A DNA stretch of 21,121 nt from Capsulimonadales bacterium (GTDB lineage Bacteria > Armatimonadota > Armatimonadia > Armatimonadales > Armatimonadaceae), in assembly GCA_033762295.1 (NCBI GenBank), contig JANRLW010000015.1, positions 1-21,121 of the forward strand. The letters run 5' to 3'. Made by a program: the position numbers and the translations under genes. Numbering within the stretch: position 1 is the first letter of the stretch; each line of letters begins with the position of its first letter. This document shows, piece after piece, positions 17,971 to 19,910 of this stretch. The notes beneath the pieces were generated by a model. It had not been told where the DNA came from and searched no databases. It worked only from the letters and a program-made list of their open reading frames with translations.

Positions 17971-18116
17971 CTCGCCGCGCAAGTTCAAAGGACTGCCTGA
18001 CGTTTTCACATCAGGTTTTCCGGCTTTTCAGGCTCCGGTATCGCAGCGCGTTCGTCCGACGCGCGCCCAGGGTAGTGTGAGACGTGTGTAAGTCCCTTCG
18101 GTTGGGGCGCGGCAAG
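17971..18116 (-). ncRNA. Y-RNA-like structured RNA A (non-tRNA payload), immediately 5' of the Ro-like gene
   Basis: Outer stem CUUGCCGCGC/GCGCGGCGAG, then CCCAAC, inner stem GAAGGGACU/AGUCCUUUG, UACACAC and 3' AACUU; same scaffold as RNAs B-D. Confidence 0.65.
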
Positions 18117-18219
18117 TCCCCGTTTCCTCCGAACCTCCGACAATTTTAATCTTTGTTTTGAGTACAATTCATCGGCTTGCGGGAATTGGCCCGCAAGACA
18201 CTGATGGATAGGAGCGACT

Positions 18220-19434
18220 ATGTACCTCTCTGCACGTGCTTTCGGCCGCACCATGAAGGTCGGCCTCGGACTCGGTTTGATCGCGATCATGGCGACCGGT
18301 GTCCGGGCGCAATCGCTGACCGCAATCGAAGTCATGTCCAATCTGGACAATCCCTACGGTCTGGCGATCGGCCCGGACGGCACCCTGTACGTTTCCGAAG
18401 GCGGCGTCGGCGGTTCCGGAACGACCGTCGTCGGCGCGACCGGTCCGCAGTCCTATGGCAGCACCGGCGCATTGACGCGCCTGCGGAACGGCGTCCAAAC
18501 GCGGGTCGTGACCGATCTTCCGTCGCTCGCTCCGACCGGCGGCGCGGAGGCCGCCGGACTTTCCGATATCGCGTTTCGCAACGGCAGCCTCTACGGCCTG
18601 ATCGGCTTCATCGGCGATCCCGCGCTCCGCGCCGGAATCTCCGAAACCACCGACTTCGGAAAACTGGTCCGGTTCGACCTGACGAACGGCACTTACACGG
18701 CGGTCGCGGACATCTCCCAGGTGGAGTCCGATCTGAACCCCAACGGCGCGGACCCGGTCGACGACATCAACAGTAACCCGTACGGCCTGCTGGCAACGAG
18801 CGACGGCTTCCTGATCGCCGATGCGGGCGGCAACTCCTTGATTCGCGCGACGGAAACCGCTCCCGGCACGGACACCTTCAATCTGGCCGTTCAGGGCATC
18901 TTCGGTTCCAAGCCCAACCCGACCCCGGTCGGCCCACCCTTCGCCCAGGCGGTTCCGACCGCCGTGGCCGCCGACGGTTCCGGCAATCTGTTCGTCTCCC
19001 AGTTGACCGGTTTCCCCTTCAACCCGGGCACGGCGGATATCTTTACCCTGGCCGCCGGGGGCGGCGTGATCGGCGTCCTGCCGACGCCGGATGGCCCCTA
19101 CTCCTACCTGACCGACCTGGTCTTCTCGAACGGCAGCCTGTATGCGCTCCAGTACGCGACCTCGTTCGCGCTGGGCGCCGGATGGCAGGGACCGGGTCTG
19201 CTCTGGCGGATCGATCCGACCACCGGCGACCGCACCCTGCTGTACTCCGGCTTGACCAACCCCACGGGTCTCCTCGTCACGGACGACGGTCGCATCTTCG
19301 TCACGGACCGTGGCGGTACGCCGGGTATCGGTCGGGTCCTCGAACTGACCGCCGCGCCGGAACCCGGTGCGTTCGGCCTGCTGACCCTCGGACTGGCGGC
19401 GGTCGGCATCCTCCGCCGCAAGCGCCGCGCCTGA
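18220..19434 (+). CDS. ScyD/ScyE-like beta-propeller protein with PEP-CTERM sorting signal
   Basis: Signal peptide ending VRA-Q; LDNPYGLAIGPDGTLYVSEGG, DINSNPYG, ADAGGN, QAVPT and LTGFPF motifs; C-terminal APEPG + TM helix + RRKRRA. AGGAG RBS. Confidence 0.85.
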   Translation: MYLSARAFGRTMKVGLGLGLIAIMATGVRAQSLTAIEVMSNLDNPYGLAIGPDGTLYVSEGGVGGSGTTVVGATGPQSYGSTGALTRLRNGVQTRVVTDLPSLAPTGGAEAAGLSDIAFRNGSLYGLIGFIGDPALRAGISETTDFGKLVRFDLTNGTYTAVADISQVESDLNPNGADPVDDINSNPYGLLATSDGFLIADAGGNSLIRATETAPGTDTFNLAVQGIFGSKPNPTPVGPPFAQAVPTAVAADGSGNLFVSQLTGFPFNPGTADIFTLAAGGGVIGVLPTPDGPYSYLTDLVFSNGSLYALQYATSFALGAGWQGPGLLWRIDPTTGDRTLLYSGLTNPTGLLVTDDGRIFVTDRGGTPGIGRVLELTAAPEPGAFGLLTLGLAAVGILRRKRRA

Positions 19435-19442
19435 TCCTCCGT

Positions 19443-19479
19443 GCCCCGATCCGCCGCGGATCGGGGCTTTCCGGTTTTT
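19443..19479 (+). terminator. Terminator hairpin after the PEP-CTERM gene (may also bound the converging RNA array)
   Basis: GCCCCGATCCG-CCG-CGGATCGGGGC followed by TTTCCGGTTTTT. Confidence 0.75.
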
Positions 19480-19483
19480 CCAA

Positions 19484-19620
19484 CCGGCTCGCGCAAGTTG
19501 ATGAAGCGGTGGTTTCCCACAAAAATACGCCGGAATCGAACCGACTACCCTCTGTTTCTCAAACAGATGCTCTACCGAATGAGCTTGTATGTACGCTTCA
19601 CCGATCAGGGCGCGAGACGG
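19484..19620 (-). ncRNA. Y-RNA-like RNA B containing a normal-order tRNA mimic (D arm, anticodon arm, T arm)
   Basis: Outer stem CUCGCGC/GCGCGAG; inner stem GGUGAAGCG/CGCUUCAUC. Payload: GCUC-AUUCGGUA-GAGC, UCUGU-UUGAGAA-ACAGA, GUCGG-UUCGAUU-CCGGC. Confidence 0.75.
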
Positions 19621-19628
19621 ACATTCGA

Positions 19629-19747
19629 GCGGGCGTACAAGTTCGAAAAGCGGAGTTTTTCCTCAGAAGAGGGGAAGGAATCGAACCTTCTCATCGCTTT
19701 TTGGCGATTTGTCCGTTTGTACGCTTTTCCGTTCGGGGTACGCCCGC
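19629..19747 (-). ncRNA. Y-RNA-like RNA C with a T arm and two short hairpins
   Basis: Perfect outer stem GCGGGCGUAC/GUACGCCCGC; CCCGAAC; inner GAAAAGCG/CGCUUUUC; UACAAAC; T arm GAAGG-UUCGAUU-CCUUC; 3' AACUU. Confidence 0.72.
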
Positions 19748-19756
19748 CCCCGCAAT

Positions 19757-19910
19757 TTTCCTCCCGCGCAAGTCGAAAAAGCGGGTTTTCACGTTCCGCG
19801 CTCTACCACTGAGCTACTCCCCGACGATCGGGGAGACAGGATTCGAACCTGCGACCACGGCCTCCATAAGGCGAGTGTGTACGCTTCCTGCATCGGGGCG
19901 CGGGAGGAAA
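19757..19910 (-). ncRNA. YrlA-type Y RNA D with a circularly permuted tRNA domain
   Basis: Perfect 13-bp outer stem (19757-19769 / 19898-19910). Internal order is T arm GCAGG-UUCGAAU-CCUGU, loop-closed acceptor stem CUCCCCGA-UCG-UCGGGGAG, then UA-GCUC-AGUGGUA-GAGC D arm. Confidence 0.85.

Follow-up and report, generated by a model that had tools for sequence, protein, structure and literature searches.

The window analysed here, 21,121 nucleotides at the start of contig JANRLW010000015.1 from a Capsulimonadales bacterium (assembly GCA_033762295.1), carries four related small RNA elements, designated RNAs A to D, and a gene for a Ro60/Rsr homologue directly downstream of RNA A. All five features lie on the minus strand:

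16469-17947, minus strand: Ro60/Rsr homologue gene, 492 amino acids (aa); alpha-helical ring and vWA domain with a metal ion-dependent adhesion site (MIDAS) motif
17971-18116, minus strand: RNA A, 146 nucleotides (nt), outer stem of 10 base pairs (bp) including one G-U pair, heptamer UACACAC
19488-19616, minus strand: RNA B, 129 nt, outer stem of 7 bp, heptamer UACAUAC
19629-19747, minus strand: RNA C, 119 nt, outer stem of 10 bp, heptamer UACAAAC
19758-19909, minus strand: RNA D, 152 nt, outer stem of 12 bp, heptamer UACACAC

Each RNA consists of a constant handle and a variable payload, with boundaries placed at the ends of the outer stems as read from the sequence. From 5' to 3', the handle comprises the terminal stem, an unpaired CCY, an R and an A that pair with the UU of a 3' RACUUG, an inner stem of 7-9 bp, and the heptamer UACANAC, which precedes the payload in all four RNAs. 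The bulge motifs in the window are CCCGAU, CCCGAA, CCUGAU and CCCAAC, the family consensus is CCCYAAC, and the top of the inner stem (AAGC/GCUU) is also conserved in sequence. The three-base bulge is unlike that of classical Y RNAs, in which a single C is bulged. Minimum free energy (MFE) folding recovered the outer and inner stems of RNAs A, B and C (z -2.58, -2.54 and -4.25, respectively). The four minus-strand alignments of the first-pass annotation, which had been made from the sequence alone, were all present and correct in every detail. The pattern CCCYRA-N11-TACANAC matched four times in the 5,163,139-base genome, always at the RNA locus and in the same orientation, against a single match for the reversed control pattern.

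Further elements were identified by a regular-expression scan of both strands of 80 related loci from cyanobacteria, Armatimonadota and Acidobacteriota, each with a gene for a relative of the Ro60-like protein and 3 kb on either side. The scan yielded 226 elements, comprising the four in the window and 222 distributed across 74 of the 80 loci, beside the Ro60-like gene. Every one of the 222 was located on the gene strand and none on the opposite strand. Four of the six loci without an element had less than 330 nt of upstream sequence.

Covariation in the handle was assessed with 150 non-redundant elements. Standard pairing was found in 94.2% of cells, and 13 of the 18 pairs had changed on both sides. 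Doubly changed cells numbered 399, compared to 112 +/- 12 in shuffles (the observed value was reached in 0 of 500) and 30-83 in slid-partner controls. Pairing reached 99.3% of cells in the outer stem and 97.7% at the R-U and A-U pairs that follow the CCY bulge. Two of the end pairs of the inner stem were often open (56 and 51 cells), which leaves this stem with an effective length of 7 bp. G-U pairs were abundant, with 35 at one pair. The covariation, the frequent G-U pairs and the location of all 222 elements on the gene strand together indicated that selection acts on an RNA and not on a DNA inverted repeat. These results also bear out, by strong covariation, the earlier claim that the stems differ in sequence yet remain complementary. 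The heptamer UACANAC (variable only at N), the A on the bulge side and the 3' UUG were invariant in all 150 elements, and the invariance of UACANAC would fit a second protein-contact site. With paired 5' and 3' ends and a conserved bulged helix, the handle has the structure by which Y RNAs are recognised.

Linkage of the scaffold to the gene was assessed in 121 genomes of the window's phylum with R1, a 77-position covariance model built from 20 short-payload elements. R1 misaligned RNAs D (12.5 bits) and A (12.3 bits); it undercounts elements because long payloads are penalised, and counts based on it are lower bounds. The Ro60-like protein was encoded in 7 of the 121 genomes, the window's own included. 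R1 matches were obtained in eight genomes, namely all seven with the protein and 1 of the 114 without it, a fragmented assembly of 1140 contigs. Matches lay on the same contig and strand as the gene, at a distance of 0.1-3.6 kb, and no R1 match was found in five genomes of the same family that lack the gene. A loosened pattern, run over the 121 genomes, gave as many matches as its reversed control. In the window's genome, R1 and pattern searches placed scaffold copies at the RNA locus only, where the RNAs lie on the same strand as, and between 23 nt and 2 kb from, a structural homologue of Ro60 that has no TROVE annotation. These results demonstrated a strict linkage of the RNA family, by position, by strand and by occurrence, to a Ro60-fold protein.

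The 3' end of RNA A is 23 nt ahead of the ATG of the Ro60-like gene, and a Shine-Dalgarno-like AAAGGAGG is present at 17956-17963, 8-15 nt beyond RNA A. Judged from this spacing, RNA A would be part of the 5' leader of the gene or immediately precede it. The gene-proximal element likewise ends just ahead of the Ro60-like gene in related loci.

A profile of 64 relatives of the protein matched human Ro60 (9nen, E 2.9e-15), the Ro60 of a Thermus phage (9l5y/9kop, E ~3e-13, profile positions 24-394), Xenopus Ro60 (1yvp, E 5.5e-11) and Deinococcus Rsr (2nvo, E 4.1e-7). The AlphaFold model of the window protein had a mean predicted local distance difference test score (pLDDT) of 92.2. In a Foldseek search of the PDB, ranks 1-12 were all Ro60/Rsr structures, with template modelling (TM) scores of 0.62-0.67 over 478-537 columns and 14-18% identity. 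In the vWA domain, D310, S312, S314 and D396 are invariant and T372 is nearly so; these residues fit the MIDAS motif, as generally defined, and the putative site was assigned on that basis. Because the profile matches, the predicted fold and the MIDAS residues agree, we conclude that the protein is a divergent Ro60 homologue that current annotation misses. The suggestion in the first-pass annotation of a Ro60-like site and a link to Ro60 was supported by this divergent, structurally clear Ro60/Rsr homologue directly downstream of RNA A, a gene that the annotation had not mentioned.

The Ro60-like protein matched no Pfam, NCBIfam or PADLOC family. A weak match to an 'RNA-binding protein' family of PHROGs (E 8e-5) covered its vWA part. 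A six-frame search of the window's genome (completeness 94.5%) did not detect PF05731, the Pfam TROVE family. PF05731 was also absent from four of five other genomes that carry the Ro60-like family; the fifth encodes a separate 568-aa open reading frame (ORF) that matches TROVE. The family is large, with 3055 proteins at E<=0.001 among 8000 candidates scored, 947 matching cluster representatives at 50% identity, and at least 501 genome loci confirmed among 601 pattern-matched stretches. Identity is 64-70% across cyanobacteria, Armatimonadota and Acidobacteriota, and the genomes with relatives include those of Nostoc, Microcoleus and Oscillatoria. Where relatives were named, the name was 'hypothetical' or 'vWA domain-containing', and PF05731 was present on 0 of the 120 matches listed.

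In four genomes of the same phylum, the homologue was matched in two pieces (residues ~11-123 and 111-490) that lie ~130-190 nt apart, with a single in-frame stop inside some of the matches. The two pieces could reflect an insertion, a split gene or a variant architecture. The two-piece homologues are located at:

G091:C3:4306748-4308319
G103:C1:312291-313889
G114:C4:59204-60793
G055:C4:50687-52309

The payloads of the four RNAs differ. That of RNA D consists of a T-arm, a closed 8-bp acceptor-like hairpin and a D-arm, as if a tRNA had been opened at its anticodon and its acceptor end closed; it is a circularly permuted tRNA mimic similar to YrlA. RNA D matched Rfam YrlA (RF02553) at 45.2 bits, below the gathering score of 69 (E 2.5e-8), over model positions 23-89, the tRNA-like core. 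An alignment of its class (20 sequences) retained the T-arm, the D-arm and a closed 7-bp stem, six of whose seven pairs had compensatory changes. The permuted order was confined to RNA D and its class; RNA B is unpermuted, RNA C has no D-arm and RNA A no T-arm.

RNA B carries an unpermuted D-arm, a full anticodon arm (loop UUGAGAA) and a T-arm, followed by an extra small hairpin. It matched Rfam tRNA (RF00005) at 47.9 bits (gathering score 29) with two acceptor pairs flagged as non-standard, and ARAGORN labelled it Leu-GAG, 75 nt. It has neither an encoded CCA nor a long variable arm, and its ends run on into the handle. The regular 7-bp acceptor stem of a tRNA, with its free ends, and features that would match the anticodon are missing. 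In an alignment of its class (41 sequences), 20 of 30 pairs had compensatory changes and the anticodon loops varied, with the D, anticodon and T arms kept. In this unpermuted tRNA-like class, the UACANAC heptamer can also take part in a short acceptor-like stem, of which it supplies the 5' strand. R1 scored 35-47 bits on RNA B and 40 bits (E 5.5e-8) on RNA C. The payload of RNA C has an anticodon-arm-like hairpin, the T-arm GAAGG-UUCGAUU-CCUUC and a short closing hairpin, and the RNA can be aligned with a cyanobacterial class that has UACAAAC. The 89-nt payload of RNA A forms ~3 hairpins and had no other match in the window's genome. A short-match comparison with a cyanobacterial 23S rRNA gave nothing at E<=0.05 for any of the four RNAs; no 23S rRNA is assembled in the window's own genome.

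A gathering-score Rfam scan of the window returned tRNAs only and no ready-made family for the scaffold. The comparison with Rfam models that the first-pass annotation had proposed therefore gave no full match to an existing family, YrlA being found below threshold on RNA D. The YrlA gathering score was likewise reached in none of 20 related loci.

A rough regular-expression sorting of 210 distinct elements gave the following payload classes:

Unpermuted tRNA-like class: 75 of 210 elements
YrlA-like class: 42 of 210 elements
Short hairpin class: 21 of 210 elements
C-type class: 20 of 210 elements
23S domain IV-like class: 18 of 210 elements
Sarcin-ricin/GTPase-centre-like class: 6 of 210 elements
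Other payloads: 28 of 210 elements

With at least seven rough classes in related loci, the view that payloads are swappable on one handle held. The middle base of UACANAC follows the class, being U in 74 of 75 tRNA-like, C in 35 of 42 YrlA-like and A in 17 of 20 C-type elements. RNAs B, D and C obey this rule (U, C and A, respectively), and because they share the class-specific base, they are orthologues of classes that are also present in cyanobacteria. The Rfam tRNA gathering score is attained, with D, anticodon and T arms kept, by many payloads of the related loci, and ARAGORN assigned Leu, Phe, Met, Ser, Asn, Lys and CUA types to them, some with two-base anticodons. Of the 20 listed elements with short payloads, 18 are handles with a minimal payload of 11-36 nt that lie directly ahead of the gene.

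Other payloads in related loci were recorded as separate observations. A tRNA-like payload with a CUA triplet at the anticodon position ('Pyl' in ARAGORN) lies upstream of the small ORF in several Nostoc-type and related loci (L016:211-285, L018:520-591, L019:770-842, L021:766-839, L023:791-864, L041:746-819, L069:646-720). In six loci, a ~150-nt rRNA-like payload is carried on a handle downstream of the Ro60-like gene (L041:5558-5732, L025:5587-5762, L002:5315-5486, L069:5764-5937, L061:4834-5008, L068:4317-4491). It includes 14 nt that match the sarcin-ricin-loop region of a cyanobacterial 23S rRNA without a difference (14 of 14), and a 56-nt stretch of it aligned to the Rfam large subunit (LSU) rRNA model (48.4 bits, E 2.9e-13) at helices 42-44, so that the whole fold of the GTPase-associated centre is copied. 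A ~130-nt payload is present in 18 elements (L016:764-915 and 17 similar ones, e.g. L013:778-966, L020:158-311 and L040:1697-1850). It contains 26 nt at 92% identity to 23S rRNA, near LSU model positions 1917-1942 in domain IV. The 26-nt stretch occurs in 2-3 copies per genome, and the one matching site that was checked lies inside 23S. The L016 payload matched nothing in Rfam at E<=0.01, its likeness to 23S coming from BLAST only. These domain IV-like elements mostly begin 15 nt past the 66-aa ORF described below.

A gene-proximal class comprises two hairpins and a conserved CUGCAAGCC-type linker (L003:2220-2348, L012:2619-2731, L037:2627-2753, L040:2782-2906, L059:2703-2829, L078:2806-2944), and its L040 payload had no significant match in three cyanobacterial genomes. 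The hairpin-UGC-hairpin order of RNA A is loosely like this class, a likeness of order alone. An 84-nt element upstream of the array at L031:2114-2197 (Rfam tmRNA 54.2 bits) has a GGGG...CCACCA acceptor and a T-arm; it was rejected as a payload, being outside any handle.

The remaining features around the array are:

18220-19434, plus strand: NHL-repeat protein with a PEP-CTERM anchor, convergent, separating RNA A from RNA B; no sign that it is a conserved component of the system
19443-19467, no strand assigned: 11-bp GC-rich hairpin in the interval that separates RNA B from the convergent plus-strand gene, with a T-rich run after it on the plus strand
19942-20142, minus strand: 66-aa ORF that heads the RNA array, with its stop 33 nt before RNA D
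20163-20526, minus strand: four tRNA genes, Phe-GAA, Arg-UCG, Arg-GCG and Lys-UUU (Rfam tRNA 56.7-63.5 bits, ARAGORN)

The 66-aa ORF is a recurrent companion of the RNAs. A full-length homologue of exactly 66 aa, with 47-59% identity, was detected by tblastn in 61 of the 80 related loci, in every case on the same strand as the Ro60-like gene and upstream of it, and the next scaffold RNA mostly begins 10-30 nt past its stop. In an alignment of 26 sequences, 19 columns were invariant, as was the C-terminus RPEAVYG. The protein matched nothing in Pfam, NCBIfam or PADLOC. Its structural model (pLDDT 86.7) has the order strand-strand-helix-strand-strand. Foldseek returned nothing for the model at E<=0.001, and the top ranks of an exhaustive structural search, with Z no higher than 5.7, went to MoaD, FERM-F1 and ubiquitin-type chains. 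The modelled protein is likely beta-grasp-like, a fold that is not secure, and it is possible that it serves as a third subunit or a modifier-like protein. A predicted complex of the Ro60-like and 66-aa proteins scored 0.00, against a mark of 0.32. We know of no described counterpart of this ORF in the Deinococcus Yrn/Rsr system.

Further copies of tRNA-Phe-GAA, tRNA-Arg-GCG and tRNA-Arg-UCG are present elsewhere in the genome, and tRNA-Lys-UUU is the sole copy. The tRNA genes are possibly in the same transcription unit as the array. Loci L003 and L008 likewise have a tRNA-Lys-UUU gene, at their far upstream edge. From its position and sequence, the hairpin at 19443-19467 probably terminates the plus-strand gene, and it may also end a transcript of RNAs D, C and B; it is not among the sites listed by a consensus terminator scan. 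At 659-15249 on the minus strand, downstream of the Ro60-like gene, are an aldo/keto reductase, a long complex I (nuo-type) cluster and a succinate dehydrogenase/fumarate reductase flavoprotein. These look like ordinary housekeeping context with no evident link to the system.

The locus was compared with known Y RNA systems. Chen et al. 2014 and Wang et al. 2018 describe bacterial Y RNAs as a Ro60-binding stem joined to an effector module, a permuted tRNA mimic in YrlA, encoded within ~4 kb of rsr on the same strand (PMC4201824; bioRxiv 10.1101/312249). Upstream of rsr, according to the former, Deinococcus Yrn2, tRNA-Asp and Yrn1 form one precursor, as do YrlA and YrlB of Mycobacterium smegmatis (PMC4201824). 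The gene order in the window (tRNAs, small ORF, RNAs, Ro60-like gene) repeats this plan. The YrlA/YrlB and Rsr systems of Salmonella Typhimurium and M. smegmatis share with the window the design of a Ro60-binding stem and a tRNA-like module, and several RNAs per locus a few kb from the protein gene on the same strand. YrlA also has the permuted order of RNA D, with a T-arm, a closed acceptor stem and a D-arm. A YUAY is reported to be conserved past the Ro-binding stem of YrlA (PMC4201824), and this may correspond to the UAC of UACANAC. Only the 5' handle strand is described as recognisable in YrlA (PMC4201824), whereas the window handle conserves both strands; moreover, UACANAC is invariant, and unpermuted tRNA mimics and non-tRNA payloads share the one handle.

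The Yrn1/Yrn2 RNAs of Deinococcus radiodurans are likewise described as an array upstream of the Ro60 gene, co-transcribed with a tRNA, in which both strands of the Ro-binding helix are kept as in the window handle (PMC4201824). Yrn1, reported to have a T-arm and an anticodon-like arm with no clear D-arm (PMC4201824), resembles RNA C. No sequence-level match was found between Yrn1/Yrn2 and the window RNAs, however, and the window protein belongs to a subfamily other than that of Deinococcus Rsr (18% identity to 2nvo in the Foldseek alignment). The partner protein is ~477-492 aa long, compared to 531-534 aa for the cyanobacterial Ro60 rows examined in Table S1 of PMC4201824, and that table includes no cyanobacterial protein of 476-480 aa. 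Metazoan Y RNAs (RF00019) similarly have a terminal stem formed from both ends, a bulged conserved helix and a variable, protein-binding inner module. In contrast to the window RNAs, their tRNA likeness is described as not apparent (PMC4201824), and the window RNA genes are bacterial and clustered beside the protein gene. Unlike a canonical tRNA (RF00005), the tRNA-like payloads have acceptor ends that are not free but run into the handle, an invariant acceptor-like 5' strand and no CCA. A full-text literature search, which did not cover PMC10870794 (the 2020 Annual Review on bacterial Ro60), found no description of the protein subfamily or the scaffold.

Several results weigh against identifying RNAs A to D as Y RNAs. 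The Ro60-like protein had no match to Pfam TROVE, even at E<=10. The YrlA gathering score of 69 was reached by none of the four RNAs, with no YrlA match at all for A, B and C, and Rfam Y_RNA (RF00019) was matched neither at E<=10 within 17900-20000 nor in the gathering-score scan of the window. The MFE fold of RNA D was no better than shuffles (z -0.36), although its outer and inner stems could be drawn. The 5' motif GNCGAAN0-1G given in PMC4201824 is only loosely resembled by the bulge motifs of the window. A single transcript cannot cover RNAs A to D because the opposite-strand gene at 18220-19434 separates A from B, C and D, and a consensus scan found no sigma-70-type promoter. Nevertheless, we consider it likely, with good confidence, that RNAs A to D are paralogous Y-RNA-like noncoding RNAs of a divergent Ro60 ribonucleoprotein system. 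The covariation, the adjacent Ro60 homologue and the payload classes support the modular family envisaged in the first-pass annotation, in which one handle presents exchangeable domains. Covariation and homologues near Ro-like genes, the lack of which that annotation had named as refuting, were both observed.

The tRNA-like payloads could instead be working tRNAs or their precursors, with B as tRNA-Leu(GAG) and the stems as processing signals cut by RNase P and 3' nucleases, in which case the Ro60-like protein would have no role. The score of RNA B above the Rfam tRNA threshold (47.9 vs 29 bits), its being the sole Leu-GAG called by ARAGORN in a genome that is 94.5% complete, and the true tRNA genes directly upstream are in keeping with this. 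Bacterial tRNA-Leu carries a long variable arm, however, and RNA B is 75 nt without one, with two acceptor pairs scored as non-standard by cmscan. Its 41-member class keeps UACAUAC as the acceptor-like strand whatever the anticodon, pairs over ~5 bp only and has no CCA, and ARAGORN types are inconsistent across payloads, some with two-base anticodons. In addition, the same stems enclose short hairpins and rRNA-like pieces, which are not tRNAs. Cleavage by RNase P and addition of CCA, reported for M. smegmatis YrlA (PMC4201824), would agree with tRNA processing, but on balance we regard a working-tRNA role as very unlikely. Still closer to negligible, in our estimate, is that the shared stems are terminal inverted repeats of a DNA cassette, a mobile element or recombination site that shuffles cargo. 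Variable cargo between conserved inverted sequences, the patchy occurrence of the system (7 of 121 genomes of the phylum) and the 64-70% identity of the protein across phyla, which suggests horizontal transfer, would be expected of such a cassette. It does not accord with the strict strand bias (222 of 222 on the gene strand), with the many G-U pairs, which are mismatches in the DNA of the other strand, or with stems that covary while single-stranded motifs are invariant. No scaffold copy was found elsewhere in the genome, and no transposase or integrase was present among the window ORFs scanned against Pfam.

Two further proposals concern function. RNA A might act mainly as a cis-acting leader, the Ro60-like protein binding the handle in its own 5' untranslated region and repressing translation, in the manner of ribosomal-protein leaders. 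The closeness of RNA A to the ATG (23 nt) and to AAAGGAGG (8-15 nt), and the placement of handles with minimal payloads (11-36 nt) directly before the gene in related loci (18 of 20 listed), argue for such a role; the handle of RNA A is clear of the ribosome-binding site, however, and its 89-nt payload is not minimal. We consider this possible though not probable, and it is compatible with Y-RNA-like RNAs. Rather unlikely is a broader proposal in which the system is a display platform for mimics of key RNA sites of the translation machinery, and not merely a decay particle of the Rsr/Y RNA kind. It draws on the tRNA mimics, the 23S domain IV-like piece and the sarcin-ricin/GTPase-centre-like payload that the handle carries in related loci. 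The ring and the 66-aa companion would then hold decoys that sense or absorb RNA-cutting toxins, or that titrate factors which bind tRNA and these rRNA sites, a set to which the four window RNAs would contribute the tRNA-type decoys.

For the Y-RNA-like system that we favour, what we infer about binding, processing and function starts from the RNA structure, its conservation, the gene linkage and the protein fold described above. By analogy with known systems, the ring-shaped Ro60-like protein would bind the handle. In metazoan Y RNAs, Ro60 has been reported to touch the 5' strand of the bulged terminal helix, GGUCCGA (PMC4201824). The bulged helix of the handle would be the classical Ro60 site, and the AAGC/GCUU stem top together with UACANAC would form a second site at a distance of at least about half a helical turn. 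On the Rsr/Y RNA analogy, each payload may tether the ring to a different tRNA-recognising partner or gate access to the ring, which would specialise a particle for RNA surveillance, decay or repair. The array is probably co-transcribed with the upstream tRNAs and the 66-aa ORF and then processed. RNA A may allow the Ro60-like protein to regulate its own mRNA.

Bacterial Ro60/Y-RNA biology rests so far on three species. The 2014 survey, the only systematic one we found, is described as having sampled only genomes with an annotated TROVE protein (PMC4201824), and the Ro60-like family escapes such annotation yet is large and unusually conserved. Features that set the locus apart from the published Y RNA systems are the non-TROVE subfamily, the two-strand handle with a three-base bulge, the invariant UACANAC, the mixed payloads and the 66-aa gene. 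One invariant handle with many payloads, in classes kept from Armatimonadota-like genomes to cyanobacteria, constitutes a natural experiment in modular RNA design. It makes testable the role of the tRNA-like module, the recognition of RNA by Ro60, and whether Y RNAs act as tethers, gates or decoys, with UACANAC and the 66-aa companion protein as new experimental entry points. These results point to a widespread, overlooked version of the Ro60/Y-RNA particle.

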